A DNA stretch of 46,126 bases from the NCBI GenBank assembly GCA_964510625.1, contig CAZEBD010000001.1, positions 1-46,126 of the forward strand, in the 5' to 3' direction. How positions within the stretch are numbered: position 1 is the stretch's first letter; each line of letters starts with the position of its first letter. The position numbers and the translations under genes were made by a program. Positions 26,558-43,535 of the stretch are shown piece after piece. The stretch is from an uncultured Planctomycetales bacterium (GTDB lineage Bacteria; Omnitrophota; Gorgyraeia; Gygaellales; Profunditerraquicolaceae). The notes below the pieces were generated by a model, which saw only the letters and a program-made list of their open reading frames with translations, had not been told where the DNA came from and did not search any database.

Positions 26558-26562
26558 TCGTC

Positions 26563-26652: not shown

Positions 26653-26669
26653 TCTTCAACTTACACTCA

Positions 26670-26698
26670 AATATAACACCTGAGATAGACGCTGTCAA
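26670..26698 (-). promoter_or_regulatory. Sigma70-type promoter for the riboswitch and giant gene
   Basis: The minus strand reads TTGACA (26698-26693), a 17-nt spacer, then TATATT (26675-26670). This lies about 10-20 nt upstream of the aptamer. Confidence 0.55.
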
Positions 26699-26794
26699 GT
26701 AAAAAATCGCCAATTTTGGTAACGCTTTCTTTCTCCGGTCCTGCTGCTAAAATCGCAGCCATTCTACCGTAGAAACACACACTGCAAAACATCC

Positions 26795-26836
26795 AAAAAG
26801 GGGACGTTTCCCTCAAAAGGGGACGTTTCCCTTTTT
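26795..26836 (+). repeat. REP doublet (2 direct copies of GGGGACGTTTCCC); left inverted repeat of the RAYT unit
   Basis: The sequence is AAAAAGGGGACGTTTCCCTCAAAAGGGGACGTTTCCCTTTTT. Positions 26795-26832 are the exact reverse complement of 27468-27505. Confidence 0.9.
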
Positions 26837-27029
26837 AGGATGAGATTAATAAGATATTTCTGCTTATAGTTAACAGTTAGATATGCTGTATATATCGCTT
26901 AGTTTTGTTTGGACAAATAAGTGAATAGATTGGACAATCTTAAATTCAAAACAATTAGACTGGACAATATCTAAAGCGGGATTTTTAAGTTAGATTCTTA
27001 CACTAATTTCGTCAATTACTATGGAGATA

Positions 27030-27051
27030 GGGGGACGTTTCCCTCCCCCTT
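27030..27051 (+). repeat. Single REP copy forming a hairpin just upstream of the RAYT remnant
   Basis: The sequence AGGGGGACGTTTCCCTCCCCCT has a 7-bp stem (AGGGGGA/TCCCCCT) and contains the GGGGACGTTTCCC core at 27031-27043. Confidence 0.8.
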
Positions 27052-27085
27052 GTGATTAAGTTTAGTGTATTTTAGGAGGTGTATT

Positions 27086-27455
27086 ATGCCCAGATCCAGC
27101 AGAATAATTGAAGGAAAATCCGCTATTCATGTCATGTGCCGGGGTAATAATAAGCTGCCTATGCGGCCATCTCTGGCAAGGCAGATATAAGAGCGTTGTG
27201 ATTAAATCTAACAGCCAAATCTTACAATGCGGAAAATACATAGAACTTAACCCGGTTCGGGCCGGTATAGTCACAGATCCCGCTCAATATCAATTTAACA
27301 GCTATAGATATTACGCTTTGAGCCATCAAGATTCACTGATTACCCCAAGCCCGGTGTACGAGAATATGGGGATAGGGCCTTTAAAAGCCAGGCAGGCTTA
27401 TATTAGTTTTGTTATAGACAAGGAAATTGGGGGTTTGATACAGAAATCCCGGTAG
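27086..27455 (+). pseudogene. Degenerate REP-associated tyrosine transposase (RAYT / IS200-like Y1 transposase) with an internal deletion and a frameshift
   Basis: A strong SD (TAGGAGGTGTATTATG) is followed by MPRSSRIIEGKSAIHVMCRGNNK..., the RAYT N-terminal HV..RGN motif, which stops at 27188-27190. The +1 frame (track ORF 27108..27455) carries GHLWQGRYKS....YIELNPVRAGIV. The roughly 70-80 aa that normally hold the HUH motif are missing. Confidence 0.7.
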
Positions 27456-27467
27456 AAAAGTTAAGCA

Positions 27468-27505
27468 GGGAAACGTCCCCTTTTGAGGGAAACGTCCCCT
27501 TTTTA
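27468..27505 (-). repeat. REP doublet in inverted orientation; right inverted repeat of the RAYT unit, overlapping the tadC stop codon
   Basis: GGGAAACGTCCCCTTTTGAGGGAAACGTCCCCTTTTT is a perfect 38-bp reverse complement of 26795-26832. Confidence 0.9.
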
Positions 27506-28360
27506 TTTGAAGCCGCCAAGGCCGCCCTGGAGGAAGGTAAGCAGAATTGGGCCGCCTACGATGATGCCGATAACCGGCATAATGCAGAAAATCAGAGGAA
27601 TAAGGATCTTAATCGGTGCCTGTAAAGCAATTCTTTCACCGCGGTGGAATCTTTGGGCGCGGGCATCTTCGGAAAGAATGGTAAAAGCCTCGGTAACCGG
27701 CGTACCCATACGCTCAGCCTGGATAATTGTCTGGGCAAATGAGGTCATTTCAGGTATCTCCAGGCGATGCGCCATATCCTTTAAGGCCTGGATGCGCGGC
27801 TTACCCCATTTTATCTCTTCAGCCACAAAAGCCAACTCCTCAGTCATCGGGGTATGCGGAGTACGCTCAATCACCCATTTTACGGAATTAACAAAATCCA
27901 GGCCGGCCTCGATACAAAGCCCCAGAAGATCAATGGTTTCCGGAAGGCGGCGAGCAATCAGATATTTACGCTTAGCAACCTTACGTTTAATATAGAAATC
28001 CGGCAGCATATAGCCTAAACCAACAGGAATTATTAATGTCAAAGGATCTATTTTCCCGCTGGCCGACACCACCAACACCGCTAAAAGGATGCATAGAATT
28101 ATCTTGAGATTAAAGAATGCTCCGGGTGAGATCTCCATCCGCGCCGCTTCCAGGGTCTTTTTTAAGCTGGCAGCCAGGCCGGTCTTCTGTAAAAGCGGCC
28201 CAGTAGGAAAGATGTTCATAAAATCAAACCCCGGCTTCTGGAATTTGATCTCCGAGCCATCCTGGGCCCTGCGCGGCAGGGTACTGGGCGGAGAATAAAT
28301 CAAACTCCACACCACCAGGCCGATCGCCCCCAGAATCGAAAGTAAGATGACGATAACCAT
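27503..28360 (-). CDS. tadC: Tad pilus inner-membrane platform protein, TadC-like (T2SS-F domain)
   Basis: Track ORF of 285 aa with TM helices flanking a cytoplasmic T2SSF-type domain (LPETIDLLGLCIEAGLDFVNSV...). It lies directly downstream of the TadB-like gene with a 1-nt gap. Confidence 0.75.
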   Translation of the reverse strand: MVIVILLSILGAIGLVVWSLIYSPPSTLPRRAQDGSEIKFQKPGFDFMNIFPTGPLLQKTGLAASLKKTLEAARMEISPGAFFNLKIILCILLAVLVVSASGKIDPLTLIIPVGLGYMLPDFYIKRKVAKRKYLIARRLPETIDLLGLCIEAGLDFVNSVKWVIERTPHTPMTEELAFVAEEIKWGKPRIQALKDMAHRLEIPEMTSFAQTIIQAERMGTPVTEAFTILSEDARAQRFHRGERIALQAPIKILIPLIFCIMPVIGIIVGGPILLTFLQGGLGGFK

Positions 28361-28361
28361 A

Positions 28362-29207
28362 TTAGATTTTGATTGTGCTAAAAATCTTGATCAGGATCAT
28401 CCCCACTACCTGCAGGACTACCGCGGCAATTAAAAGCATCCTGCCCATGTTGGTCTGCAGCATGATATCGAAATGATTTTTATTCACCGAGACCACCCAG
28501 CCCACAAAAGCAATCGGCAAAAAGGACATGATCATACCCTGCATTCTTCCCTGCAGGGTAAGGGTTTTAATATTTTCCCTTAATTTACGGTTATCCCTGA
28601 TGGTTACCGTCAGGCGGCTGAAGACCTTGGGCAGCTCTCCTCCGGTTTCCCTGGCCACCAGCAGGGCATTGACCACCAAACCCAGCTCCTCCAGATTCAT
28701 CCTTTTATTCAGGCGTTTAAGGCACTCCTCTAAAGGAATACCCATACGGTTCTCTCTGACCACCAAGCCTAACTCCTGGCTGATCGGGGCAGGCATCTCC
28801 TCGACGAGAACTTCCAGCCCCTGCAAAAGGCTTAAGCCCCCTTTAATACAGCTGGAAAGCATATTAATCGCATCTAAGAGCTGCTCGTTAAACTTGCGGA
28901 TCCTGATTTTATACCGGGTTTTTAAGATGAAATTCGGGATGGAGACGCCGATAAGCACCCCTAAAATCAAAAAAAGGTTTGATTTTAAGATAACCAACCC
29001 CCAAAAGCCGAAGATTAAAGGCAGGATGAAATAAAGCATGACAATGCCTTTTGGGCTCTTGTCATAAAACATCTTATCCATTTCCTTGCCAAACTCTTCC
29101 TCCTTTTTCTGCTGCCAGAATTGCATCTTCTGCACAATCGGCGGAAGGAGGCTCAAAGAAATTAAAATTACCGCGCACAGGATTAAAAGATTAAGCAAAA
29201 TAAGCAT
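28362..29207 (-). CDS. tadB: Tad pilus inner-membrane platform protein, TadB-like (T2SS-F domain)
   Basis: Track ORF of 281 aa with an N-terminal TM, LLDAINMLSSCIKGGLSLLQGLEVL, and C-terminal TM helices. It is a paralogue of the adjacent gene. Confidence 0.75.
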   Translation of the reverse strand: MLILLNLLILCAVILISLSLLPPIVQKMQFWQQKKEEEFGKEMDKMFYDKSPKGIVMLYFILPLIFGFWGLVILKSNLFLILGVLIGVSIPNFILKTRYKIRIRKFNEQLLDAINMLSSCIKGGLSLLQGLEVLVEEMPAPISQELGLVVRENRMGIPLEECLKRLNKRMNLEELGLVVNALLVARETGGELPKVFSRLTVTIRDNRKLRENIKTLTLQGRMQGMIMSFLPIAFVGWVVSVNKNHFDIMLQTNMGRMLLIAAVVLQVVGMILIKIFSTIKI

Positions 29208-29224
29208 AATATCCCAATTTTTAT

Positions 29225-29389
29225 TTAGCCGGCCTGCTCGCCGCCGCCGATGACATCGATAGACTGCCGGAATTTACCTTGCAGGCTGCGCTTGTAATAT
29301 GCTCCCGCCAGGATTAATACTGCAGTGACCACCGCCAATACCAGCAGATATTCCATCACCGACTGCGCTTTAAAATTTAGTTTTTCCAT
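29225..29389 (-). CDS. flp: Flp-family prepilin (54 aa; below the ORF-track size cutoff)
   Basis: Hand translation gives MEKLNFKAQSVMEYLLVLAVVTAVLILAGAYYKRSLQGKFRQSIDVIGGGEQAG*. It has the A/QSVMEY class-III signal motif and an upstream AAAGAGGA. Confidence 0.8.
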   Translation of the reverse strand: MEKLNFKAQSVMEYLLVLAVVTAVLILAGAYYKRSLQGKFRQSIDVIGGGEQAG

Positions 29390-29525
29390 ATCCGTTATTT
29401 TATCCTCTTTGGGTTAAGATAGTCACTAAAACCAAACATAATCTCACAATAGCAGATTTATGAAAAAAAGCTACTTTTTTTATTGTGTGTTGTTTTGGAA
29501 AGTGTGCGGATTGGAAAATAAGATG

Positions 29526-31355
29526 TTAGCCGGTGCTGGTTATCTCAGGATAATACTCATCTTTAAATTGCCCGATAGCCGCTCCGCCGATACCTACCTG
29601 ATCGAAAGTGGCAGTGCTGTTACTTGTGCTTGACACGGTTCCTGCGGTTTTGGAAGTTACCGTACATTTGACCTCCCAGGCTCCGTCTAAAGTTACAGAA
29701 TCAATATAATGAATCATTAAGCCCGGATAAAGATCGTTTACGCCTTTATAATCCTGTACTTCCTTAGCATTTTTAAAAGATTCCGCACCCCCGGCCGATT
29801 GCCAGACATTATTCCAGATATCATTATTCCATTTTATGAATACCGGTATAGTTGCCTCATTTCCAAGCGAGGCAAAGCTAATTTTGTTTAACCAAACACG
29901 GATTTTTTCTTCATTAGCCTTTAAATCAGCCAACGTGACTGCAAGGGCAGCGTAAGCCTCCGTACAATCATAACCATCTTCGCAAGCCTCGGCATAATAT
30001 TTGGAGTCTTCATAGACAGATTTATTCGATGTGAATAAAGAATCGGCGGTAAGGCCTTCAAAAAACTCCGGCTTAAATGATTCTGTACCCGCTGGAAGTT
30101 TTCCGGTTGCGATAATGGATAAAAGGTCGGCAACATCGCGCAGCGCGTATGATAAACCTACAAAATAATCACCTAACGCGATGCCATCTTTACCCTTCTC
30201 GCCGTTGATCCGTTCATCAACACCGGGTGTAGCCGGATCATCTTTAGCATCGGGATGATAGTAGCGATCACTAGTCATGTCTTGCGGTAAATCATCGTAG
30301 TCGCAAAACAAAGCAGCGGCTTCACGATTGAAAGGATCACCCAGAAAAACAGCAGGCGGAATAGAATATATTATGGGTAGCCCAATATCAAGAGGAACAG
30401 CGTGAAGCATATGTTTTTGCGGAAAGTTCCATTTAGTATGGAACAATTGATAAGTTTGAATCTTAGGTAGCTCACATTTCACCGAAAGTGAACCACCCTC
30501 GTAATCATAAGTAGCCTCTTCCTTAGTCGGGGTTACTCCGGTTACCGGATCCTTTGTCCCTTCAAAAATAGAGCCTGTACCTATCTGGAAATTCAAATCA
30601 TCTCCGCCGCCTCCGGGAATCAGACATGTACCATTATTAAATCCGTAAGTTTGCCCGGTTTCTCTAGCTTGTTTAAAAGCCCCACCCTCACCGCCCTCAT
30701 TCCCTTTCCCGTCTTTATCCCCACTGCCGCCTTGCATAAAACTATCTGCGTTACCGAAATTCTCCATCTGAACGCTTCTGAAATAATCAGTAAATTCGTG
30801 CATAAAATAGAGATAAACAGAAAAAGCCCCCAACTGCTTAGAAGCTTCGTATAAAGCTGCGGCAGCTTGTTTATTAAGATCAGCGGCGGTCAACTCCTTT
30901 GCCCATATTGTACAATCCGGCTCTTTAACCATTTGTTCCATCGCCTGTTTCATTAATTTTTCCGCTTTGTGGCAATAATTAATTGCATTTTCTGCATATT
31001 TGCCTTTAACCGAAGCATTATAAAGAACTTCATACTTTTTACGCATCTCCTCAAAATAATCTTTCAGCTCTTTATAGTAAGTGTCAGTATTCTCCTTATT
31101 CATATACTGCACCGTATTGCCGGGAGTAGGAGGAGGGGTTTTATCCTTGTTCCGAAACACCAATTGATTAAAAGCACCTGCTTCATAAGAAGCAGCAGCC
31201 AGCGCCGCGGCATCGGCGGCATTAGACGCACAACTCTTGGCTACTTTGGCTTTCCCGGTTGCTTTAGTTACCGCTATAAGCGCCAGCAACCCGGCTATGC
31301 AAACCAGCAGAACCGGGAAAATTTGCCCGTTACAGCTGTTTTTATTCTTAAACAC
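29526..31355 (-). CDS. tadG: TadG-like large pseudopilin / putative pilus-tip protein (609 aa)
   Basis: The N-terminus reads NGQIFPVLLVCIAGLLALIAV, followed by the SNAADAAALAAAS motif typical of TadG-like proteins. The C-terminal part is large and unassigned. Confidence 0.55.
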   Translation of the reverse strand: MFKNKNSCNGQIFPVLLVCIAGLLALIAVTKATGKAKVAKSCASNAADAAALAAASYEAGAFNQLVFRNKDKTPPPTPGNTVQYMNKENTDTYYKELKDYFEEMRKKYEVLYNASVKGKYAENAINYCHKAEKLMKQAMEQMVKEPDCTIWAKELTAADLNKQAAAALYEASKQLGAFSVYLYFMHEFTDYFRSVQMENFGNADSFMQGGSGDKDGKGNEGGEGGAFKQARETGQTYGFNNGTCLIPGGGGDDLNFQIGTGSIFEGTKDPVTGVTPTKEEATYDYEGGSLSVKCELPKIQTYQLFHTKWNFPQKHMLHAVPLDIGLPIIYSIPPAVFLGDPFNREAAALFCDYDDLPQDMTSDRYYHPDAKDDPATPGVDERINGEKGKDGIALGDYFVGLSYALRDVADLLSIIATGKLPAGTESFKPEFFEGLTADSLFTSNKSVYEDSKYYAEACEDGYDCTEAYAALAVTLADLKANEEKIRVWLNKISFASLGNEATIPVFIKWNNDIWNNVWQSAGGAESFKNAKEVQDYKGVNDLYPGLMIHYIDSVTLDGAWEVKCTVTSKTAGTVSSTSNSTATFDQVGIGGAAIGQFKDEYYPEITSTG

Positions 31356-31380
31356 AATTCCCTCCTACTATCTTGCCAAA

Positions 31381-31578
31381 TTAACTATTTAAAGGTACCT
31401 CTGGCACACCTGGCGAAGCTTTCTTGCCTGCCTGTGTCCGGGTACCTTCAAAGGCACCTTCCCGCTGCGACAGGTGGGCTAATGACCAACTCCATAAGGA
31501 TACCATCGTTGACATTAAAATTATGGCGATAGCAAAAACCACTGTGTATTCTATTATCGATTGCCCTTTTTTCACCAT
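31381..31578 (-). CDS. Flp/TadE-type prepilin-like protein (65 aa)
   Basis: MVKKGQSIIEYTVVFAIAIILM carries the G/QSIIEY motif plus a hydrophobic helix. Confidence 0.7.
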   Translation of the reverse strand: MVKKGQSIIEYTVVFAIAIILMSTMVSLWSWSLAHLSQREGAFEGTRTQAGKKASPGVPEVPLNS

Positions 31579-31587
31579 TTCCTACCT

Positions 31588-32193
31588 TTAGTTTGGCGTG
31601 TATATACCGTTACCTGCCAATGTGCTGTCCAGGCTAACCGTTGTTTCACCGATATCCATACTGCCGGTTATACTATCGGCATTACTATGCGATTTACCGG
31701 CAACCATGTTTGCCCCGGGAGACTGCCGCTGATGAAGATAACTGCTAGACCTGGCATCGCTGCTAAAACCAAAACTGCTGACAGTAACATCCCCGGCGGC
31801 AATCGAGGTATCCGTAACGGGAATTTCTTGCGTATACTCTTGCTCTCTATTAAGCTGATAATATGCTTTTGATTCGGGGTGTTCTAAGGTGCCGTCTGGT
31901 TTTAGCTTACCATCTGCCCAAAGGACACTATTGCTGTTAGTATATACTCCCAGCTGCCCCATATCTCCGGGGCCGATCACATCAGGTAACCGGCGGAAAT
32001 CCGCGGTTGTCCAAGCTACTGAATTATTAATCTCCTGGGCTTTCTTTAAGTTAGCCCGGAAGGTTTGTTGCATATAAGAATGCGTGCGATTAAAATCTTC
32101 ACTAAGATTGATAATGATAGAAAAGGCCATTAAGATAAACCCGCCGAGAATCGCTAATTCCAAAAGTGCCTGGCCTTTTTGATTTCTTAACAT
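31588..32193 (-). CDS. TadE-like pseudopilin (201 aa)
   Basis: MLRNQKGQALLELAILGGFILMAFSIIINL carries the TadE-type G/QALLEL motif. Confidence 0.65.
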   Translation of the reverse strand: MLRNQKGQALLELAILGGFILMAFSIIINLSEDFNRTHSYMQQTFRANLKKAQEINNSVAWTTADFRRLPDVIGPGDMGQLGVYTNSNSVLWADGKLKPDGTLEHPESKAYYQLNREQEYTQEIPVTDTSIAAGDVTVSSFGFSSDARSSSYLHQRQSPGANMVAGKSHSNADSITGSMDIGETTVSLDSTLAGNGIYTPN

Positions 32194-32229
32194 TTCTCGC
32201 CTCTTGATTTATGACTACCGGCTCAAAAA

Positions 32230-32532
32230 CTAATCGGTAGTTACAACCGGACCGGGATCAGAGGAGGAACTTTCAGTTCCCACATAAGTCCTCACTCCAC
32301 CCTTGGCCTCTGTGGCTGTAATCGATGAATCCGAACCCGATTTAGTCCATTCCGGGCCCGGGTCTCCGGCGGATTGCGTGCTGGATAGTACACTATCCGT
32401 TACATCTTTGATCTTCCCCTGTATGCCTCGCTTAACATAAACCTGCATCCCCATAAATACCAGGCCCACTACGCCGATAATCAGCGCTAACTCCATTAAA
32501 TTCTGCCCTCTCTGAAAAAACTCTTTTCTCAT
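32230..32532 (-). CDS. TadE/Flp-type prepilin-like protein (100 aa)
   Basis: FQRGQNLMELALIIGVVGLVFMGMQVYVKRGIQGK. The 4-nt ATGA overlap with the upstream gene suggests translational coupling. Confidence 0.65.
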   Translation of the reverse strand: MRKEFFQRGQNLMELALIIGVVGLVFMGMQVYVKRGIQGKIKDVTDSVLSSTQSAGDPGPEWTKSGSDSSITATEAKGGVRTYVGTESSSSDPGPVVTTD

Positions 32533-33143
32533 CGCAAAGGCCCCAGTCTTTCATTAATATTCCTGGTAGTAGCGGTATAGGAATCTGAGACACCACGTTG
32601 GCCGCTACTGGATTTATCCGGTGTACGCGACTTCTTAAAGGCCTCCGCTGCGGCTTCAGCAGTCTTACCTAAAGCCTCAAATTTAGCGCCAGTATCACCT
32701 ATATTTTTAAGATCCGTGTATGATGTGCTTTTAGCAAAATCCCATGGGTAGGTTCCGCTTAGAACCTTACCCGCCTCTTCAGAAGCGCTAGAAGTAACCT
32801 GGTTTTCAAAAGTTTGATAAAAACCATACATTGTCTTGTAATTACCCTCTATTGCATCTTGCGCAGCATCTAAAGCTTCTTTCTCTTTATTCTTCTTATC
32901 CTGCATATTTCCGTGAGTAGTGGTAGTGCTGCTTGCCGATTCCTGTTGGATGGTTGAATGTTTCTGCTCTGAGTTGCTCAGCGTGGTATCATACGGGTCA
33001 TATTGCCTGGCTTCTAACTGCTCGGCTTGAGAACGTATATTCCCCTGATTAGAACGGCTGATATAGATGAACAGCGCAATAAAAGCTGCCGTCACCAGCC
33101 CTACCAATATAATATAATCTGTCAGTGCTTGCCCGCGTCTCAT
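32529..33143 (-). CDS. Prepilin-like protein with a 170-aa C-terminal extension (204 aa)
   Basis: MRRGQALTDYIILVGLVTAAFIALFIYI carries G/QALTDY, with Asp in place of Glu5. Confidence 0.6.
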   Translation of the reverse strand: MRRGQALTDYIILVGLVTAAFIALFIYISRSNQGNIRSQAEQLEARQYDPYDTTLSNSEQKHSTIQQESASSTTTTHGNMQDKKNKEKEALDAAQDAIEGNYKTMYGFYQTFENQVTSSASEEAGKVLSGTYPWDFAKSTSYTDLKNIGDTGAKFEALGKTAEAAAEAFKKSRTPDKSSSGQRGVSDSYTATTRNINERLGPLR

Positions 33144-33155
33144 TATATTAAACCT

Positions 33156-33449
33156 TTACCATTTCAGCACACGCTCATTGCCTGTCCTGGTCTGATTACT
33201 GCTTATCGTGGTTGTAGAAGCTCCGCCTTTGGATGAAACTTCAGTCTGAGAGGAATGCGTGACCGTCTTGTAAGTCGACTCGGTATTGCCGGCATCATAC
33301 TGTTCTCCGATCTGATCCGTAGACTCACGCAGCCTGCCCTCAGCCGACCTTTTAATATAAACATTCATCGCAATCAGCGCTGCTACCACCACCCCCAGTA
33401 AAATCACATACTCCAAAGTGCTCTGTGCTTTTGTCCTTAAATAAGACAT
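33156..33449 (-). CDS. Flp-type prepilin, B' paralogue (97 aa)
   Basis: MSYLRTKAQSTLEYVILLGVVVAALIAMNVYIKR...DQIGEQYDAG...NQTRTGNERVLKW. Closely parallels 33850..34155. Confidence 0.75.
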   Translation of the reverse strand: MSYLRTKAQSTLEYVILLGVVVAALIAMNVYIKRSAEGRLRESTDQIGEQYDAGNTESTYKTVTHSSQTEVSSKGGASTTTISSNQTRTGNERVLKW

Positions 33450-33480
33450 ATCCTCCTCCTAATCTTTAATTTCCGCTTTT

Positions 33481-33801
33481 CTACCGCACCCCTGACACAT
33501 TTTGCTGGCCGCTGGTCGTGCTGGTCTCCTGGCCCACGATCGCCCTGACAACCTCCCCACCTTCCCTGGTTTCAGTATTTAATTTAGAATCGCTGCTTCT
33601 GGTAATATCGCTGGAGGCATAATACGGCTCATATTGTTTGGTAACAAACATAGCATCCGGCTGATAGTCGCTGGCGCCTTTGACCTTGGCCATGATCCCG
33701 CGTTTGACATAGACCTGCATAGCCACTGCCGCGGCGATAACTAAACCAATAACAATGGCATACTCAGCTGTGCTCTGACCTTTTCTTTTCCGCCTTAACA
33801 T
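33481..33801 (-). CDS. Flp-type prepilin, A' paralogue (106 aa)
   Basis: MLRRKRKGQSTAEYAIVIGLVIAAAVAMQVYVKRGIMAKVKGASD. Closely parallels 34177..34527. Confidence 0.75.
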   Translation of the reverse strand: MLRRKRKGQSTAEYAIVIGLVIAAAVAMQVYVKRGIMAKVKGASDYQPDAMFVTKQYEPYYASSDITRSSDSKLNTETREGGEVVRAIVGQETSTTSGQQNVSGVR

Positions 33802-33849
33802 TTTCCTACCTCCTTAAAATTGAACTTGACCAGCTTTTTATCTTAGCTG

Positions 33850-34155
33850 CTAATTGCCGCTTTCCCAGGTTTTTACCGTTTCATTCCCGGTCCTGGTCTG
33901 CTCACTGTTAATCTGGGTCTCTGTCCTGCCGCTATTAGACAATACCTCACGCTGGGTTTGCTTGCTGGTAACCAGGTAATTACTCGTGGTTAATCCGGCA
34001 GAATACTGCTCACCGATCTGATCGGCGGCCTGGCGCAATTGCCCCTGGGCCCCTCTTTTCATATAGATACCCATCGCAATCAATGCCGCAACCACTACAC
34101 CGATTAAAATTACATACTCCAAAGTACTCTGCGCCTTTGTTTTTAGACAAGACAT
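33850..34155 (-). CDS. Flp-type prepilin, B paralogue (101 aa)
   Basis: MSCLKTKAQSTLEYVILIGVVVAALIAMGIYMKR...DQIGEQYSAG...EQTRTGNETVKTW. Preceded by AGGAGGTGGGG. Confidence 0.75.
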   Translation of the reverse strand: MSCLKTKAQSTLEYVILIGVVVAALIAMGIYMKRGAQGQLRQAADQIGEQYSAGLTTSNYLVTSKQTQREVLSNSGRTETQINSEQTRTGNETVKTWESGN

Positions 34156-34176
34156 GCCCCACCTCCTAAAAATAAA

Positions 34177-34527
34177 TTATTCAACAGCCTCAATAACCTG
34201 AACCCCGCTTCTAGTAGATTTATCCCCTCCGACGGTGATCCTCTCTACTTTACCGCCAGCCGACATTGTTTCTGTCTTTTCCGCGTCCCTGCTCGAGGTC
34301 AACCCGGGAGAAGTGATATAGTCCGGATCATATTGCCCGCCTTCGACCGAATTTACGCCAAAATCTTCGCCTCCGGTTGCTTCTATTTTTGCGTCGCTGG
34401 CATCTTTCATTTTGGCCTGGATCCCGCGTTTAACATAGACCTGCATGGCCACTGCCGCCGCCAGCACTAAACCAATGACAATGGCATATTCAGCCGTACT
34501 CTGACCTTTCTTAAATTTATTAAACAT
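34177..34527 (-). CDS. Flp-type prepilin, A paralogue (116 aa)
   Basis: MFNKFKKGQSTAEYAIVIGLVLAAAVAMQVYVKRGIQAKMKDASD. Preceded by AAGGAGGCTGCC. Confidence 0.75.
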   Translation of the reverse strand: MFNKFKKGQSTAEYAIVIGLVLAAAVAMQVYVKRGIQAKMKDASDAKIEATGGEDFGVNSVEGGQYDPDYITSPGLTSSRDAEKTETMSAGGKVERITVGGDKSTRSGVQVIEAVE

Positions 34528-34538
34528 TGGCAGCCTCC

Positions 34539-34706
34539 TTAAAAAGCAACCGTTTCGATTTTATCGCTAACCTTGCCCGCTAAGCCCTCGTATGACTCCG
34601 GTAATTTCTTTTTCAGCATCGAGGCTACGGCAATAATCGCCCCCACCACTGCGGCTAAAACAATTACATATTCCAAAGTACTCTGCCCTCTCCTGAATCT
34701 TTTCAT
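34539..34706 (-). CDS. flp: Flp-family prepilin (55 aa; not in the ORF track)
   Basis: Hand translation gives MKRFRRGQSTLEYVIVLAAVVGAIIAVASMLKKKLPESYEGLAGKVSDKIETVAF*. The SD is AGGAGGAGAAGAGATG. Confidence 0.8.
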   Translation of the reverse strand: MKRFRRGQSTLEYVIVLAAVVGAIIAVASMLKKKLPESYEGLAGKVSDKIETVAF

Positions 34707-34723
34707 CTCTTCTCCTCCTAAGA

Positions 34724-34879
34724 TTAGCGTTCAGCTGCGTGCGAATACACCTCTCCTGACATCCCGGCTTTTCGGGCATTTACTGCCCGCCGGATATAAA
34801 CATTCATCGCGATCAGCGCCCCGCTTACCACCAACAACAACATAATATATCCAAGATATCCTTGCCCTTTGCGCCGCAT
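34724..34879 (-). CDS. Atypical Flp-like prepilin lacking Glu5 (51 aa; not in the ORF track)
   Basis: Hand translation gives MRRKGQGYLGYIMLLLVVSGALIAMNVYIRRAVNARKAGMSGEVYSHAAER*. The motif is G/QGYLGY, with Gly where the conserved Glu sits. Confidence 0.55.
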   Translation of the reverse strand: MRRKGQGYLGYIMLLLVVSGALIAMNVYIRRAVNARKAGMSGEVYSHAAER

Positions 34880-34886
34880 TTAATAT

Positions 34887-35093
34887 CTACCCCTCAGAAT
34901 GCTGGCCGGAAGATTCTTCCTTCTCCGGATGATACCCGCGGGAATGGTCGCCGAAGCCTTTTTTACTTACCCCCGGCACGGCATTAAACGCCCGCTGGAT
35001 ATAGATCGTCATCGCCGTCAAAGCCGCAGAAACCACCAGAATCAGCAAAGTATATTCGATAAAATTCTGCCCCTTTTTTCCTTTCAGCATCAT
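34887..35093 (-). CDS. Flp-type prepilin-like protein (68 aa)
   Basis: MMLKGKKGQNFIEYTLLILVVSAALTAMTIYIQRAF carries the G/QNFIEY motif. Confidence 0.7.
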   Translation of the reverse strand: MMLKGKKGQNFIEYTLLILVVSAALTAMTIYIQRAFNAVPGVSKKGFGDHSRGYHPEKEESSGQHSEG

Positions 35094-35140
35094 TTAAACC
35101 CGCCTGTTTAGCAAAGCTTAATCAGCGTGTAACTGCCGTA

Positions 35141-35287
35141 TTATTTATTTTCGGGATAAACCGCATCATAAGCCTTTTTCAAAGGCTCTTTAAAAACTAT
35201 CCCCCCGCCGATGATCGCCGCAGCGACCACCGCCAACAAAATAATATACTCCAACGTACTTTGGGCCCTGCGGATTTTAATGATCAT
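35141..35287 (-). CDS. flp: Flp-family prepilin, first gene of the pilin operon (48 aa; not in the ORF track)
   Basis: Hand translation gives MIIKIRRAQSTLEYIILLAVVAAAIIGGGIVFKEPLKKAYDAVYPENK*, with the A/QSTLEY motif. Confidence 0.8.
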   Translation of the reverse strand: MIIKIRRAQSTLEYIILLAVVAAAIIGGGIVFKEPLKKAYDAVYPENK

Positions 35288-35339: not shown

Positions 35340-35368
35340 AATATACCACTTGCAAATTCAAGATTCAA
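35340..35368 (-). promoter_or_regulatory. Sigma70-type promoter of the pilin operon
   Basis: The minus strand reads TTGAAT (35368-35363), a 17-nt spacer, then TATATT (35345-35340), about 50 nt upstream of the first flp ATG. The -35 lies within a direct ATCTTGA ATCTTGA repeat. Confidence 0.45.
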
Positions 35369-35381
35369 GATTAATTACCGG

Positions 35382-37415
35382 TTATTTGAAAGCGCTTTCA
35401 AACCAAAAAAGCCGGTCATTCCCGGCGCTGATCTTACGCTCATTCAGGCGGCAATTAAGGTATTCCAGGTCCTTAAGCGATTCATAATCCTGGCTAACCA
35501 GCGTTTTTACCTTAAGCTTACCAGCAGCAGGAAGCAGCTTGGCCGGGATTTTATAAAAAATGTCACTGGTTGAAGACAGGTCTTTATCCAGGTACTCCGC
35601 CGGCAGAAAACGCCAGCGCAGATAAGCATCTAATATTTTAACATAATTAGCAAAGATTTCCGTCAGCTCCATCGCCGCTCCAGAGGTGTCCATACCGAAA
35701 CTGTCCTTAGGGAAAATTTTCTGCTCCGCACTGGAATAAGTAAAAAGCTCAATCTTGCGGGTAAAATCCTGGAAGGCCTCCTCAAAATTCGGCCAATGGC
35801 TTAAGTAAATTCCGGCCAGCCTATCTATCTCCGGTGCCGTCTGGTCGCTGCTAAGAATAACCAGGCGGATTTTTTCCTTCAGATCGGTTTTTACCGCGCA
35901 GCCCTTTAAGGTTACGCTTTGATTTGTCGCTACCCTAAACAGGTCAATCTCGATTTCCCCTAAATATAAATCCCGGTCCAGTTCTTTAATGTACTTCAAA
36001 GCAAATTCCCCGATTTTTTTGACTTTACGGCTGGAGGTAAACTGCCATGGCCAAAGGCCAAAGATAAGGCCGCACCGGTTTTCCCGGGTTAAAGGAACAT
36101 TCTCGGCTTCTTCCAGTTTATTATTAAATAAAACCAGGTTATCCGGGTAGATCTCTTTAGAGCCGATATTTAAGATAAGGTTAAAAAAATCCTTAGGCAG
36201 AATATCGTAGCCGGGGGGAGAAAATAAAACCAGCGGCTCTTGCTTCAGGAAACATTTATTCAATTTGTCCTGGAGATTAAGGGTCAGGTCAGAAAAATCA
36301 TCGGGAAAGCGCATCCCCGGCCAGCTTGAATGCAGCTGGCCATCCAGATGAATAACTGTCCCGTCGGAAAAATGGACTTTGACCCCTTTGGACTCGGTAA
36401 AAAGATTTGAGATAATTTTGGGTACCTCTATGCCGATATCAGGGATCTGCTTAATCTGAGCAAAATAATCAGCTAAATTTTGCGCAGGATAGCGCACCCC
36501 GATCAGGTCGGCAACCGTAGCAATATTGCCCTTGCCTCCGAATAAAGATTTAAAAATTAATGTTTCAGTAAGGTGTAAAAGTTCTTCGGGGTTACCCCCG
36601 GTAGCCCGGCTAATAGCAGCATTGATCTCTTTGCTGCCTCCGATCAGGCAATCGATTGCTTTAATGATCATTGCCCCTGAACAAACCCGCTCTTCCGGTA
36701 AGATTCCCGGAGCAAGCGATTCCGGCTGTGGCGGCGAGACTACCTCTTTAACCGGCGGAGGTGGAACGGGAGGCGGCGGCGGAGGTGGAGTTGGCAGGGC
36801 GGCTTTCTCTTCTGCCATTCTACGCGCTTCCTCTTCGCGTTTCCTCTTTTCTTCTGCTTCCTGAGCCAGCCTGGATAATTCCTGCAGGCGCGCCTCCTCC
36901 TGGGCTTTCATCCGGGCTAATTCCTGAGTTGCCTTTTCAAGCTCCCGCAATCTATCCTCTTCCTGAGCCTTAATAATAGCTAACTCCTGCGCAGCTTTTT
37001 CCTCGGCAAGCTTACGCGCCTGCTCTTCCTGCTTTATACTTGCTTCTGTTTCTTTAATTAATCTATCTCTCTCGGCCCGGTCTGCTTCTTCCTGTTTTTT
37101 GCGGGCAGCTGCCTCCTCCTGCTCTCTGAGGATCTGTTGGGTCATCTCCACCCTGGAAGTATCTTTAACCCCTTCAATCACCGGCAGGGCCGGCATATTA
37201 AATTTCTTTTTCTTAGGCTTAGCCCTTCTGCCGATAGGCATACTTAGGTTGTTTTCTTTAAAAACAGCATTAATACTGGATTTAGATACTTTGATTTGCA
37301 GCTGTTCAAAAATTAAAGCAGTTAGATTGCGGCAACTTAAGGCAGGATTATTCTGCTTATTTTCCAGGATGAATTTTAAGACTTCAGGTTTAAGCTTATG
37401 AACTACACCCATCAA
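35382..37415 (-). CDS. HTH-domain protein with a charged coiled coil, a polyproline tract and a large unassigned C-terminal domain (677 aa)
   Basis: Track ORF. The N-terminus is transposase/regulator-like HTH (LSCRNLTALIFEQLQIKVSKSSINAVFKENNL). It is followed by about 130 aa of E/K/A/R/Q-rich heptad-like sequence, then PTPPPPPPPVPPPPV, then about 440 aa of unknown fold. The true start may be the ATG at 37412, since the TTG at 37415 is only 3 nt after GGAGGA. Confidence 0.7.
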   Translation of the reverse strand: MMGVVHKLKPEVLKFILENKQNNPALSCRNLTALIFEQLQIKVSKSSINAVFKENNLSMPIGRRAKPKKKKFNMPALPVIEGVKDTSRVEMTQQILREQEEAAARKKQEEADRAERDRLIKETEASIKQEEQARKLAEEKAAQELAIIKAQEEDRLRELEKATQELARMKAQEEARLQELSRLAQEAEEKRKREEEARRMAEEKAALPTPPPPPPPVPPPPVKEVVSPPQPESLAPGILPEERVCSGAMIIKAIDCLIGGSKEINAAISRATGGNPEELLHLTETLIFKSLFGGKGNIATVADLIGVRYPAQNLADYFAQIKQIPDIGIEVPKIISNLFTESKGVKVHFSDGTVIHLDGQLHSSWPGMRFPDDFSDLTLNLQDKLNKCFLKQEPLVLFSPPGYDILPKDFFNLILNIGSKEIYPDNLVLFNNKLEEAENVPLTRENRCGLIFGLWPWQFTSSRKVKKIGEFALKYIKELDRDLYLGEIEIDLFRVATNQSVTLKGCAVKTDLKEKIRLVILSSDQTAPEIDRLAGIYLSHWPNFEEAFQDFTRKIELFTYSSAEQKIFPKDSFGMDTSGAAMELTEIFANYVKILDAYLRWRFLPAEYLDKDLSSTSDIFYKIPAKLLPAAGKLKVKTLVSQDYESLKDLEYLNCRLNERKISAGNDRLFWFESAFK

Positions 37416-37543: not shown

Positions 37544-37888
37544 TTAGCCTTGAAATTGAATTTGGTCCTGGAGCTGGGTATTAGTGGCTGCTATTTTTCC
37601 GGCAGATAATTCAATAACTTTGCTGGAGCGCCAGGATATGCCTGAAATGCTGTTAGGCTTAAGATTGGCGGTAATTTTAACGACCTTATAATCTTTATCT
37701 ACAAAAAGCACATCTATGGGAAAGCGCATAAAAAAGGTATGCACAGAATTGCATGGATCAAGGATAAGCGCTTGGTTAGATCCCAAGGACTTTTTACCCA
37801 ATAATCCCTTAATCCTGCTAAAGATAGTGCTGGCAACAATGACATCTTCGGCTAAAATAGTATTTTTACTCTGATTGATCAGGCGCAT
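37544..37888 (-). CDS. DUF192-family protein (114 aa)
   Basis: The pattern RIKGLLGKK...ALILDPCNSVHTFFMRFPIDVLFVDKDYKVV...VIELSAGK matches the DUF192 (COG1430) signature as I recall it. Confidence 0.6.
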   Translation of the reverse strand: MRLINQSKNTILAEDVIVASTIFSRIKGLLGKKSLGSNQALILDPCNSVHTFFMRFPIDVLFVDKDYKVVKITANLKPNSISGISWRSSKVIELSAGKIAATNTQLQDQIQFQG

Positions 37889-40058: not shown

Positions 40059-41669
40059 TTATTCTATCTGATAAATTATCGGAATATCCACCCAGACTTC
40101 ATTTTCTCTGATCTCAGGCGGAAAGGGAGGATATGGGGAAGCTGCCCGGGCACTTTTGAGTGCGGCATCGTTAAGCACTCGGTAGCTGGAGGGTTCCTTG
40201 ATCTTTGCTTCCAGCAAATCTCCCTGCGGAACCAATTTAAGGCTTAATTTTACCGCCCCCTGAAATCCGGCATCCTTGGCTTCAGCAGGATAAAGCAGAT
40301 TATCTAAAATTTTCTTCTGGACCAATTTTGAATACCGCAAAACCGGGTTTTGTATTAAATCATCTCCGACAGACGGGATACTGATATTGGCCCGCGGAGC
40401 CTTTAGTGCAGCCTTAGACTGATCCCCCATGTCGACTAAACGCGGAGTAAGGGTAATAAACAGTTCAGTATCATTCATCTTGCTGGTATCGGATTCCCAG
40501 CCTTTTTGAGTAGTCCGCTGCCTGAAGAATACTCCCAGGACCGGGATATCGGAAAGCCAAGGCGTCCTTCTTAATTCTTCAGCCGTCTTCTTCTTGATCA
40601 ATCCGCCTAAGGCCATCGTTTGGCCGTTATCTAAGAAAAGTTCGGTAGTGGCGGTGCGCTTAGTCATTTTATAAGCAAAAGCATAATCGGTCTGCACCTC
40701 ATCCCCAACATCACTGACCACTACATCTAAGTTCAGGTGGATACGCCCGGATTCTTCCAGGCGCGGCTTGATATTCAGGATAATGCCATATTCTTTATAT
40801 TCTACTGACCCGGAGGTTGTCGCCCCTACCGTACCCGTACCGCTGGTTCCGGGAGTAACCGTACCGCTTAATACCGGCACCTCTCCTCCGACGACCAATT
40901 TTGCCTCCTTACCGCTCTGGCAAGCCAGCCGCGGGCGGGAAAGAATACGCGCCTTGCCTTCCTGGATCAAAGCGTCCAATTTCAAAGTAAATGCCTCACG
41001 CGTAACATCGGCAATGGTAAATAATTTAGCTAAGGAGGAAACACCCGGACTGATTGCCCGGGAACCAACTTCGGTCAGATTGATCTCGCCCGGCCAGGTT
41101 AAACCCAAAGTATCCTGGCTTCCGCGGTTAAGCTCGATTACCTGGACATCGATTTCAATTACCGCTTCCTCTTCTTTTACCGCTACTAAATCCACGGTCT
41201 TATTTTTCAACTGCCCCAAAGCCAAAGCCAGTTTGTCTTTATCTTTAGCAAATTTCACGCTGCCTAAAAGCACGACCCGGTTTTCTTCATCTTCAGCTTT
41301 AGTATAAATATTTGGCAGATTTAACGAAGCAAGTATATTATCAATACGCCGCTTGATTTCATTGGTATCTTCAATAAAGACCCTTAGGCGGTAAGAGGAC
41401 TCGCCGAAATTATCCCAAACCACCAAGGTAGTGCTTCCGGCGGATTTCGGGTTAATCGTCAACTCCGTTTTGCTGATGCTGGCCACATCGGCAACTGTCG
41501 GATTACCAATCGCTATTTTCTTGGGCGAATTTACCGGAATGGCTTTCGACTGCCCGACGTAAAGTTTTATTTCTTCATCTACATCCGCTGCGCCGGCAGA
41601 ATAACCCCGGAAAGGCAAGGCTAGGACCAAAGTAACTATGCATAATAGGCCAAAAAATAACTTTCTCAT
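40059..41669 (-). CDS. cpaC: Tad secretin (CpaC/RcpA-like) with a C-terminal TonB_C-like domain (536 aa)
   Basis: It has a signal peptide and the pilus N-terminal domain (LYVGQSKAIPV..IAIGNPTVADV). The secretin core reads GGLIKKKTAEELRRTPWLSDIPVLGVFFR. The last ~85 aa read LLYPAEAKDAGFQGAVKLSLKLVPQGDLLEAKIKEPSSYRVLNDAALKSARAASPYPPFP. Confidence 0.8.
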   Translation of the reverse strand: MRKLFFGLLCIVTLVLALPFRGYSAGAADVDEEIKLYVGQSKAIPVNSPKKIAIGNPTVADVASISKTELTINPKSAGSTTLVVWDNFGESSYRLRVFIEDTNEIKRRIDNILASLNLPNIYTKAEDEENRVVLLGSVKFAKDKDKLALALGQLKNKTVDLVAVKEEEAVIEIDVQVIELNRGSQDTLGLTWPGEINLTEVGSRAISPGVSSLAKLFTIADVTREAFTLKLDALIQEGKARILSRPRLACQSGKEAKLVVGGEVPVLSGTVTPGTSGTGTVGATTSGSVEYKEYGIILNIKPRLEESGRIHLNLDVVVSDVGDEVQTDYAFAYKMTKRTATTELFLDNGQTMALGGLIKKKTAEELRRTPWLSDIPVLGVFFRQRTTQKGWESDTSKMNDTELFITLTPRLVDMGDQSKAALKAPRANISIPSVGDDLIQNPVLRYSKLVQKKILDNLLYPAEAKDAGFQGAVKLSLKLVPQGDLLEAKIKEPSSYRVLNDAALKSARAASPYPPFPPEIRENEVWVDIPIIYQIE

Positions 41670-41730: not shown

Positions 41731-42618
41731 TTATTTTGATAAAGGCATTTTTTCTTTGGATAACCCGCGCAAAACCTCGATATATTCCGTGGTGTCCACT
41801 ACCGGCGCATCGGCTACCGGAGCCGGTTCATTTTGCGGCATAATATACCGGAATAAAGTCTCCCAGCTGGCCGGAGTAATCGGTTCGGTATTGGCATCCG
41901 CCGGAGAACGCATAATCAGGCGGATCTTACCCTGCTCCTGGACAAAAGCGATCAGGTTTGCTTCCTGAAGCCCTAAAGCCAAAGTAATCAGAGAATTTCC
42001 GCCGGAAGAAGAAGCCGGCTCTGAAGAGTATCTGCTGGCCGAGGCAACTACCCCCATATTCTGCCCGACCGCCAACACTAAAATATTCTGAAATAAAGGC
42101 ACTACCGCCATTTCATTAGACCCCTGCTGGGTAGGCACCGGAATTATCGCCAGCACATCTACATAATCACCGGGTTTGACCATCCCGGCCAAAGAAGACA
42201 TATTATCCACAACTACAGAAATCGCCCGCTTCCCGGCAGGAGTTACCCCCGCTAATCCCCCGGTAGTCCCTCTTTCCCTGGCCAATTTAGAAAGGCTGAT
42301 CTGCTCACCCTTAGATATCGGGGCAACGGTGATCATGCCGGAAATTCTATCTAAAGAAGTTACCGCTTGCGGCTGAACAAATTTATTGGGGACAATAGAA
42401 GTTTCAAACATCTCTGCGGCAATCACCGCCCCTTGCGGGATATCATCTTTAGCAACCAAGACCGAAGTCTGGTTAGACTGCATCTGTGCAATTGCCGCTT
42501 TGGCCTTATCGCGCAGAGACTGCTCCTGCTGGTCTAAATACATCTTGGTCATCACAATCGCCATAACCCCCAGGATTATTCCGCTGATCAAAATAAGCTT
42601 CTGTCTGTCGATAGCCAT
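41731..42618 (-). CDS. cpaB: Flp pilus assembly protein CpaB/RcpC-like (295 aa)
   Basis: It has an N-terminal TM and a SAF-like segment (VLVAKDDIPQGAVIAAEMF), followed by a C-terminal RcpC-like region. The start overlaps the upstream stop (TAATG). Confidence 0.75.
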   Translation of the reverse strand: MAIDRQKLILISGIILGVMAIVMTKMYLDQQEQSLRDKAKAAIAQMQSNQTSVLVAKDDIPQGAVIAAEMFETSIVPNKFVQPQAVTSLDRISGMITVAPISKGEQISLSKLARERGTTGGLAGVTPAGKRAISVVVDNMSSLAGMVKPGDYVDVLAIIPVPTQQGSNEMAVVPLFQNILVLAVGQNMGVVASASRYSSEPASSSGGNSLITLALGLQEANLIAFVQEQGKIRLIMRSPADANTEPITPASWETLFRYIMPQNEPAPVADAPVVDTTEYIEVLRGLSKEKMPLSK

Positions 42619-43535
42619 TATTTTATCTCTCCTTCGAATATGTCAATCTTAGCGTCGCGGGAAAGCTTACCGATCAACTCCTCCAGGGCCTGTTGCTGCT
42701 TAAGAAAAACCAAGGCGCGCTTAATATCCTCCCACATTTCACTTAAAGGTTTTTGTTTGCCTCCGCGTTTGGCCTCTAATTTAACAATACTCCAGCCTTC
42801 GGGGGTTTTAAATGTGCTGCTTACCTTGCCGACCTCCAGGGAATCGGAAAAAGCTGCCGCATCAAATTGTGCGGATTTCTTCTGCCTTTGGATGAAACCT
42901 AAATCCCCGCCGTCTTTGGCGCTTGAAGATTTTGAGTTGCTCCTGGCCAGGGTGGCAAAATCCGCTCCCTGCAAAAGCTGGATCAGGATATCCCGGGCTT
43001 CCTGCTCGCTACCGACGACGATTTCGGAAATCTGCCTCTCCTCCGGTTCCTTGAGCTGTTCCTTGTAAGTGTTATAATAATCCTCTATCTCTTTGGAGGT
43101 CGCATCGATATTTTTGGTAATTTCTTTAATATCCTGCATGACCATCAGGTCGCGCTTATTTTTTTCCAGCGCCTGCCTGACCTCTTCATCGCGGTCTAAG
43201 CCTTTGTCCAGGGCATCCTGATAAATCAAGGCCCGGCGGATTACTTCATTCTTCAGGTAAGCCACCTTTTGCTCTTTGGTCACAATCTTATTTTCAGGAC
43301 GGTCATTCGGGACATTGTCATTATATAAACTGATCTCTTCATTCAGATCATCCAGGCCGATAGCGATATTATTGACCTTGGCGACCACCGAACCTTTAGG
43401 GATAATCGCTGCTGCCGGGCTATTTACCGTTTTTACCTCGACTTTCTTCTTCGGTAAAGGGTTAAATTTATCGCACCCCAGAATGCTGCTGAATAACAGG
43501 CCGCTGATTATGCATAAAGCTAATTTCTTTTTCAC
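42618..43535 (-). CDS. Lipoprotein with a parvulin-type peptidyl-prolyl isomerase domain (PrsA/SurA-like, 305 aa)
   Basis: GTG start 5 nt after AAGGAGG. The lipobox is FSSILGC. The parvulin-like region reads ISEIVVGSEQEARDILIQLLQGADFATLARSNS....GGDLGFI...FDAAAFSL.VGKVS..FKTPEGWSIVKLE. Confidence 0.7.
   Translation of the reverse strand: MKKKLALCIISGLLFSSILGCDKFNPLPKKKVEVKTVNSPAAAIIPKGSVVAKVNNIAIGLDDLNEEISLYNDNVPNDRPENKIVTKEQKVAYLKNEVIRRALIYQDALDKGLDRDEEVRQALEKNKRDLMVMQDIKEITKNIDATSKEIEDYYNTYKEQLKEPEERQISEIVVGSEQEARDILIQLLQGADFATLARSNSKSSSAKDGGDLGFIQRQKKSAQFDAAAFSDSLEVGKVSSTFKTPEGWSIVKLEAKRGGKQKPLSEMWEDIKRALVFLKQQQALEELIGKLSRDAKIDIFEGEIK

Follow-up and report, generated by a model that had tools for sequence, protein, structure and literature searches.

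The stretch of DNA analysed here (the window; 46,126 nucleotides) is the entire contig CAZEBD010000001.1 (C1) of an Omnitrophota metagenome-assembled genome (GCA_964510625.1; 1.38 Mb, 185 contigs, 88% complete). Its minus strand carries, from position 35287 to 29225, a block of 14 consecutive open reading frames (ORFs) for pilin-like proteins of 48-609 amino acids (aa), here called p1 to p14 (Table 1). The ORFs are separated by -4 to 48 nt, except for 136 nt before p14. A preliminary description made from the sequence had reported 14 consecutive prepilin-like genes in one Tad operon, and we found all of them at the coordinates and sizes given there, including four ORFs below 60 aa (p1, 48; p3, 51; p4, 55; p14, 54 aa). 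Shine-Dalgarno sequences lie 5-10 nt upstream of most ORFs; the strongest (AGGAGG) precede p4-p8 and p13, those of p9 and p10 are weak and that of p14 is distant. When the genes were compared with those of six related loci, the proportion of non-synonymous differences (pN, 0.23-0.58) stayed below that of synonymous ones (pS, 0.39-1.03, mostly saturated) for each of the 14, with rate ratios (dN/dS) of 0.12-0.68 where dS was computable. This showed that all 14 genes are real and under purifying selection and, since it holds across the whole block, that the four smallest ORFs are genuine genes, too. The possibility of pseudogenes or chance ORFs (pseudogenes would, according to the preliminary description, have refuted its reading) was rejected on the grounds of the Shine-Dalgarno sites, the presence of orthologues in dozens of genomes and pN being smaller than pS. 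Conservation varies along the block, with 50-71% identity to orthologues for p4-p8, 24-42% for p9 and 25-39% for p13, making p9-p13 the fastest-evolving members.

What these genes share is their N-terminus. In 13 of the 14, a leader of 4-9 residues containing K/R is followed by G/A, then by Q-x-x-x-(E/D/G)-(Y/L) and a hydrophobic stretch. Gln at position +1 is invariant throughout, and position -1 is Gly in ten proteins and Ala in four. The acidic residue at +5 is missing from p3, and p13 (NG-QIFPVLL) lacks both it and the adjoining aromatic residue; the earlier statement that every gene bears a class III motif therefore holds for all members except p13. A strict pattern (M..[KR]..[GA]Q...[ED][YLF] plus 15/16 hydrophobic residues), scanned in six frames over the 1.38-Mb genome, returned 12 matches, every one of them inside the pilin cluster, and a hidden Markov model (HMM) built from the N-termini found 13 matches genome-wide, all of them on C1 among the matches listed. 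The motif pattern of the cluster is thus far beyond chance. Across 349 ORFs from 32 arrays, collected with -1 and +1 left free and E or D required at +5, position -2 was K/R in 80%, -1 was G in 60% and A in 34%, +1 was Q in 93% and +5 was E in 94% (D in the remainder), followed by Y in 70%, with a median leader of 8 residues. Motifs of the type [KR][GA]/Q...E-Y have been described for archaeal EppA-dependent pilins. Judged by these residues, the family-wide [KR]-[GA]/Q-x-x-x-E-Y signal looks more like the class III signals of archaeal Epd pilins than like those of Flp.

Family models point in the same direction. The only recurring Pfam match was PF04021 (Class_IIIsignal, archaeal), whose best scores in the window (20.8-22.5 bits) stay below the threshold of 23.7 and which matched 49 of 51 B-type homologues (see below) at E<0.01, again below the cut-off. 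Precomputed annotation assigns PF04021 to a few p4 orthologues, one of them is named 'class III signal peptide-containing protein' by NCBI, and JGI labels homologues as 'UPF0333 family' or, for some p4 orthologues, as 'Flp'. The 609-aa p13 had been called TadG-like, and this was borne out: the quoted stretch NAADAAALAAAS is present, residues 10-55 match Pfam PF13400 'Tad' (26.2 bits against a cut-off of 22.3) and there is a further weak match to the Rv3654c TadE-like family. The proposed TadE-like members were not supported as such. The '..LEL' genes p10 and p11 had been named for this role, and none of 13 p11 orthologues matched TadE at E<0.1; a weak TadE signal was found instead in the p12 group, where 10 of 15 orthologues gave weak PF07811 matches (best E 9.3e-5), the window's own p12 not being among them. 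An NCBIfam search with ten of the pilins yielded only noise, PDB sequence searches with a B-type profile and with p13 gave nothing meaningful, and a homologue search with p13 returned p13 alone because this protein is too divergent for the word index. In domain searches, the larger members showed no recognisable binding or enzymatic domains.

Within the array, p5 to p8 stand out as two copies of a two-gene unit. Its first member (A-type) is ~105-130 aa long (GQSTAEYAIVIGLV), its second (B-type) ~95-109 aa (GQSTLEYVILIGFVVAALIAMGVYMKRG...DQIGEQY), and an A-type gene lies immediately before 29 of the 32 B-type genes. Most genomes have one unit; the window and the loci L035 and L041 have two, and L058 (Omnitrophota genome JAPLLY010000008.1) has three, its A-B-A-B-A-B tandem at 8603-10779 on the plus strand forming part of a set of 15 class-III-like genes. 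In the window, the duplication appears in the DNA as direct repeats spaced by 706-726 nt, with 75-85% identity over the 5' ends. The copies have diverged considerably at the protein level (p5/p7 50%, p6/p8 63% identity) and each of the four has its own orthologue in L035, from which it follows that the duplication is old and has been retained. Since A-type and B-type genes almost always stand side by side and have been amplified only together, their products are probably stoichiometric partners.

The array as a whole is conserved, too. In the order to which this genome belongs, the N-terminal HMM matched 25 of 31 genomes and found 6-13 copies in one cluster in most genomes; in a sample of 301 genomes of the phylum, members of the same class typically held 5-15 copies and other classes only 1-2 weak matches. 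A pattern scan of GTDB genomes with a B-type pilin retrieved 44 loci, labelled mostly Candidatus Omnitrophota/Omnitrophica; about one quarter bore other labels, mostly 'uncultured Planctomycetales/Planctomycetia'. Counting class-III-like ORFs between the DUF192 gene and tadB in the 36 distinct loci that contain both genes, we obtained a median array size of 11 (range 3-16), with 14 in the window, 15 in L058 and 16 in L061; in two loci with only 3 ORFs, tadB has been relocated into the array. About ten conserved orthogroups follow one another in fixed order: first 3-5 short members (44-75 aa), then one or more A-B pairs, a ~200-aa member, a ~97-100-aa member, a second ~200-aa member with KAQALLELA, a 65-90-aa member (KAQATLEF...W.WS), the TadG-like protein (470-610 aa) and, directly before tadB, a lone member of 54-70 aa. 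Given this lineage median and range, 14 genes are the normal state of the lineage. The preliminary description had spoken of a marked expansion and suggested a comparison of copy numbers across related genomes; the count is indeed far above that of textbook Tad loci and the many pilins are confirmed, but the number is ordinary for the lineage and the expansion is not local, the same ordered array being found across the class. The high number of pilin genes is therefore an old, fixed and lineage-wide state, neither a recent expansion nor a switching cassette.

The pilin block sits between the ATPase side of a Tad locus and tadB/tadC. Read along the minus strand, the locus runs from tRNA-Glu and a tetratricopeptide repeat (TPR) protein through a PPIC-type peptidyl-prolyl isomerase (PPIase), RcpC/CpaB, a secretin with a C-terminal TonB_C domain, a fusion of a ParA-like TadZ with TadA/CpaF, a DUF192 protein and a 677-aa protein to the 14 pilin-like ORFs, and on through TadB-like and TadC-like proteins and a cyclic di-GMP-I (c-di-GMP-I) riboswitch to a giant ORF. 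In the fusion protein, the N-terminus matches AAA_31, CbiA and ParA, and the ATPase part is best matched in NCBIfam by the TadA family (329 bits, under the model cut-off of 373 bits), ahead of the archaellum ATPase FlaI (197 bits) and the bindosome ATPase BasE (130 bits). Judged by these predicted components, namely a TadA-type ATPase with TadZ, a platform split into TadB and TadC, RcpC, a secretin and a PF13400 protein, the machine is a Tad system. Eighteen loci share the synteny PPIase, RcpC, secretin, TadZ-TadA, DUF192, 677-aa homologue, pilins, TadB and TadC, and in those that reach that far the giant gene comes next after TadC. The layout also agrees with that of the locus associated with giant genes in Omnitrophota, in which PPIase, rcpC, secretin, ATPase, small class III genes and platform genes lie upstream of the giant gene.

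Table 1. Features of the pilin block and its surroundings in the window (aa, amino acids; a slash marks the predicted cleavage site).
Feature	Position	Strand	Remarks
PPIC-type peptidyl-prolyl isomerase	42618..43535	-	head of locus, conserved in relatives
RcpC/CpaB	41731..42618	-	PF16976 + SAF
RcpA/CpaC-type secretin with C-terminal TonB_C domain	40059..41669	-	PF00263, PF13629
TadZ/CpaE (ParA-like) fused to TadA/CpaF ATPase, 719 aa	37898..40057	-	PF00437, E 8e-62
DUF192 protein	37544..37888	-	conserved in related loci
Strong promoter-like site	37470-37442	-	11/12 near-consensus; before the 677-aa gene
Conserved 677-aa protein	35382..37415	-	coiled coil and Pro-rich middle; always between DUF192 and pilins
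Terminator-like hairpin	35426-35411	-	inside the 3' end of the 677-aa gene
Promoter-like site, TTGAAT-17-TG-TATATT, extended -10	35340..35368	-	consensus scan; in the 94-nt gap before p1
p1, short Flp-sized pilin, 48 aa	35141..35287	-	MIIKIRRA/QSTLEY; PF04021 E 7.6e-4, sub-threshold
p2, short pilin, 68 aa	34887..35093	-	GKKG/QNFIEY; paralogue of p3 (58% identity over 33 aa)
p3, short pilin, 51 aa	34724..34879	-	MRRKG/QGYLGY, Gly at +5; N-terminal HMM 59 bits
p4, short pilin, 55 aa	34539..34706	-	FRRG/QSTLEY; best-conserved short member, candidate Flp-like fibre subunit
p5, A-type pilin, 116 aa	34177..34527	-	FKKG/QSTAEY, GQSTAEYAIVIGLV; 50% identical to p7
p6, B-type pilin, 101 aa	33850..34155	-	KTKA/QSTLEY, AQSTLEYVILIG...DQIGEQY; 63% identical to p8
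p7, second A-type pilin, 106 aa	33481..33801	-	KRKG/QSTAEY; direct repeat D4, 726-nt spacing
p8, second B-type pilin, 97 aa	33156..33449	-	RTKA/QSTLEY; direct repeat D3, 706-nt spacing
p9, pilin-like, 204 aa	32529..33143	-	MRRG/QALTDY; fast-evolving, candidate minor pilin
p10, pilin-like, 100 aa	32230..32532	-	FQRG/QNLMEL; 4-nt overlap with p9
p11, pilin-like, 201 aa	31588..32193	-	NQKG/QALLELAILG; conserved orthogroup without TadE HMM support
p12, pilin-like, 65 aa	31381..31578	-	MVKKG/QSIIEY...W.WS; orthogroup weakly TadE-like
p13, TadG-like, 609 aa	29526..31355	-	SCNG/QIFPVLL, NAADAAALAAAS; candidate tip or anchor subunit
Promoter-like site	29426-29397	-	before p14
p14, lone short pilin, 54 aa	29225..29389	-	NFKA/QSVMEY; directly before tadB; 48% identical to the N-terminus of p6 and p8
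TadB-like platform protein, 281 or 285 aa (the TadB/TadC pair)	28362..29207	-	single T2SSF, PF00482
TadC-like platform protein, 281 or 285 aa (the TadB/TadC pair)	27503..28360	-	single T2SSF, PF00482
c-di-GMP-I-GGC riboswitch	26564-26652	-	RF03167, 66.5 bits; before the giant gene; only such riboswitch found
Giant ORF, >8797 aa	3-26393	-	follows tadC; runs off the contig

The locus contains no A24 peptidase (tadV) gene. The genome encodes a single A24 peptidase, a 269-aa protein on contig C13 with A24_N_bact and Peptidase_A24 domains (PilD type), whose sequence reads a CxxC...CxxC pair in the N-terminal domain and a GGGD motif and whose gene is flanked, to judge from ORF translations, by aroE-like and malQ-like genes. 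Three near-closed relatives bearing the array (G025, G169 and G008) have one such peptidase gene each, at a distance from the array of ~187 kb in G025 and ~755 kb in G169. Elsewhere, the genome holds three PilC/GspF-type platforms, four PilB/GspE-like ATPases and 13-15 classical N_methyl (pseudo)pilins (PF07963, with all matches on contigs other than C1 and none among the 14 proteins); these other pilus genes were seen on contigs C7, C11, C25, C29, C64, C67, C69, C84, C115 and C128. With ~28 pilin-like genes and a single peptidase, one enzyme would have to serve two chemically different classes of substrate. Sharing of prepilin peptidases between systems has been described (Denise et al. 2019, PMC6668835).

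Canonical Tad loci contain about 4-5 pilin-like genes. The canonical Tad/Flp systems of Aggregatibacter (flp-tadV-rcpCAB-tadZABCDEFG) and Caulobacter (cpa: pilA, cpaA-F, cpaJ/K/L) share with the window the ATPase with TadZ/CpaE, TadB/TadC, the secretin and RcpC/CpaB, as well as a TadG-type PF13400 protein and short pilins with G/xxxxEY-like sites. However, the window has 14 pilin-like genes (lineage median 11) instead of about 4-5, its pilins lie between the ATPase side and tadB, TadZ and TadA are fused, tadV is absent from the locus, Gln occupies +1 and Ala is frequent at -1, the Flp_Fap and TadE models are unmatched, and a conserved DUF192 protein, the 677-aa protein and the PPIase are extra. 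Archaeal Epd/class III pilins (PF04021, 'UPF0333') are similar in their basic leader, G/A at -1, Gln at +1, acidic +5 and several genes per locus. Unlike them, the present genes belong to a bacterial host with an outer-membrane secretin, the peptidase is of PilD type rather than EppA, the ATPase is a bacterial TadA and PF04021 remains sub-threshold. The Myxococcus Kil system is Tad-like, with far fewer pilins and no adjacent giant gene. Kil and the flp/tad genes of Bdellovibrio resemble the locus in being Tad-type machines of predators, with several pilin genes and an implication in prey contact, yet Bdellovibrio flp/tad, too, has far fewer pilins and no adjoining giant gene. In addition, Seymour et al. 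(2023, PMC10066038) place TadB and TadC of Omnitrophota together with their counterparts from Bdellovibrionales. Denise et al. (2019, PMC6668835) propose that Tad stems from an Epd-like system of archaea, and the family-wide motif of the present genes agrees with this.

Two of the proteins were modelled with AlphaFold2. From a 51-sequence alignment, p6 was predicted as a helix (residues 6-50) followed by a long beta-hairpin (strands 56-72 and 78-94; mean predicted local distance difference test score, pLDDT, of 70), a model that has a minimal pilin-like shape. Its top Foldseek matches were beta-hairpin stems of unrelated pore proteins (TM <0.32), which we regard as meaningless in view of the simple fold. 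The model of p13, based on 16 orthologues (pLDDT 72, predicted TM score 0.67), combines a helical bundle and subdomains of beta-sheet with a long helix at the N-terminus (12-69). All of its top Foldseek matches were to alpha-pore-forming toxins of the ClyA family (Hbl-B, ClyA, SmhA/B, AhlB, MakB/E, NheA); as all were non-significant (E>=0.15, TM<=0.28), we did not accept homology and regard them as a lead only.

Taken together, the 14 genes are very probably the pilin block of a Tad-type (type IVc) pilus locus that lies directly upstream of an Omnitrophota giant membrane-protein gene and serves to build one multi-component fibre; from the sequences, a heteropolymeric, multi-component pilus is the most likely reading. 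All 14 prepilins would be cleaved after Gly/Ala by the single, unlinked PilD-type A24 peptidase, and the mature pilins would be assembled into one fibre by TadZ-TadA, TadB and TadC through the RcpA secretin. The shaft may consist of one or more of the short and/or A/B pilins. Because they are the fastest-evolving members, p9-p13 would probably form the priming and tip complex, as do TadE/F/G or CpaJ/K/L. The fibre might attach to prey or host cells alongside the giant protein, the gene for which would be gated by the c-di-GMP riboswitch.

Several points weigh against this interpretation. The preliminary description had expected the genes to be recognised by the Flp_Fap (PF04964) and TadE (PF07811) models and had named a failure of these searches as grounds for abandoning the assignment. 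Neither model matched any of the 14 proteins or anything else in the genome at E<=1, so that the assignment formally failed on this point; the label 'Flp' for the short genes reflects their size, motif and context. Only gene order and co-amplification point to the assignment of shaft and tip and to the pairing of A and B. The p6 model is of moderate confidence, and a Foldseek search with it returned no PDB match at E<=0.001. The proposed processing would require a PilD-type enzyme to accept [GA]/Q sites, with Ala at -1 in one third of its substrates. Moreover, a TadV-type gene could be missing from a genome that is 88% complete, against which argue the near-closed relatives with their one unlinked peptidase. 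The number of promoter-like sites in the locus did not exceed that in shuffled sequences, leaving those listed in Table 1 as hints only. Finally, the supplements of an omics paper on V. archaeovorus (PMC12583861) contain no pilin, Tad or secretin terms.

Among the alternatives, a short periplasmic pseudopilus that, like the piston of type II secretion, exports or mounts the giant protein or hydrolases fares best, and we nonetheless consider it unlikely. West-Roberts et al. (2023) likened the locus to a type II secretion system and found it conserved upstream of giant genes; its many pilin-like genes, several of them larger, recall GspG-K, a secretin is present, and adjacency to the giant gene is conserved in the loci extending that far. 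Yet the ATPase, best classified as TadA/CpaF, forms a single protein with TadZ; the platform is divided between TadB and TadC; and RcpC is encoded as well. None of the 14 genes has the N_methyl motif, whereas the genome's N_methyl pilins and its three PilC/GspF platforms are encoded elsewhere; besides, the giant gene is under separate riboswitch control.

It is considerably less plausible still that the paralogous short and A/B pilins are alternative major subunits, expressed singly and altering prey specificity or surface antigenicity. The preliminary description had raised such a switchable fibre, and the several diverged paralogues of equal size (p1-p4, p5/p7, p6/p8) as well as the variation among genomes from 1 to 3 A-B units would fit it. 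However, inverted repeats around promoters or genes were not found, nor were long identical repeats, and the locus lacks a recombinase; what repeats the pilin region has are the diverged N-termini of paralogues (60-85% DNA identity), leaving the proposal without the invertible or recombinogenic sequences it would need. The genes are co-directional and tightly packed with individual Shine-Dalgarno sites, and every paralogue can be matched to a separate orthologue in related genomes and shows purifying selection along its entire length, which fits fixed, distinct roles. Least probable of all is a display of the bindosome kind, in which class III signals would anchor functional proteins of 200-600 aa on a stub of the small members, as in the Sulfolobus Bas system: the signals are of archaeal type, the ATPase weakly matches BasE and carbohydrate import systems near giant genes were reported by West-Roberts et al., but the larger members lack the binding or enzymatic domains this would call for, the Tad parts (TadZ, RcpC, secretin, PF13400) are present and the BasE score is far under that for TadA.

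As for the multi-component fibre, a more elaborate version can be imagined from the models, in which an obligate A+B unit, each subunit comprising a helix and a long Ser/Thr-rich beta-hairpin, would form a fibre with a fast-evolving TadG-like tip that perforates prey envelopes for the giant protein; we hold this to be improbable.

How does the array relate to what has been published? A type II secretion-like locus upstream of giant genes has been reported, with mention of small class III genes (West-Roberts et al. 2023, bioRxiv 10.1101/2023.11.21.568195), and Seymour et al. (2023, PMC10066038) reported that Velamenicoccia have a conserved Tad complex, which V. archaeovorus expresses (genome CP019384, Tad locus at 12382-29832). 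These studies devote one sentence to the small genes and do not resolve their number, orthogroups, order, A-B unit, motif or the absence of tadV. The array is therefore a well-resolved example of a known Omnitrophota locus and not a new kind of system, and the discovery is incremental, since published work already covers the locus and mentions the small class III genes in it. The detail added here comprises the amplification of the A-B pair as a unit (described in neither West-Roberts et al. nor Seymour et al.), the motif statistics, the assignments of p12 and p13, and the single PilD-type peptidase.

This detail matters for the biology of Omnitrophota, abundant and uncultured nano-bacteria that are thought to prey on or parasitise other microbes and whose main candidate attack apparatus is the Tad locus together with the adjoining giant gene. 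Some eleven ordered and distinct pilin orthogroups fixed across the class, the A-B pair and the archaeal-looking [KR][GA]/Q site, which has no TadV dedicated to it, offer concrete targets for proteomics and cryo-electron tomography of the single enrichment culture that exists. Besides, the array may be seen as an intermediate-looking living state for the proposed transition from archaeal Epd to bacterial Tad.

Some minor features of the locus deserve mention. Orthologues of p4 are 55-57 aa long and 58-75% identical to it. An Rfam search found no RNA element in or before the pilin array, even at E<=1. The DUF192 and 677-aa proteins lie between ATPase and pilins in nearly all related loci examined, and neither occurs in canonical Tad loci. 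The latter protein has a weakly helix-turn-helix-like N-terminus, a Glu/Lys/Ala-rich coiled coil, a poly-Pro stretch and a C-terminal part of ~340 aa without a family match; a literature search on DUF192 turned up nothing relevant to pili. Between tadC and the riboswitch, a 115-aa ORF on the plus strand (27108-27455) is probably a truncated remnant of a REP-associated tyrosine transposase (RAYT), matching positions 103-145/146 of the model NF047646 (the C-terminal third only; E 9e-9, below the cut-off). The TonB_C domain of the secretin spans residues ~457-534 (PF03544, E 4e-14; TIGR01352 above its cut-off) and represents an unusual fusion for secretins of the RcpA/CpaC type.

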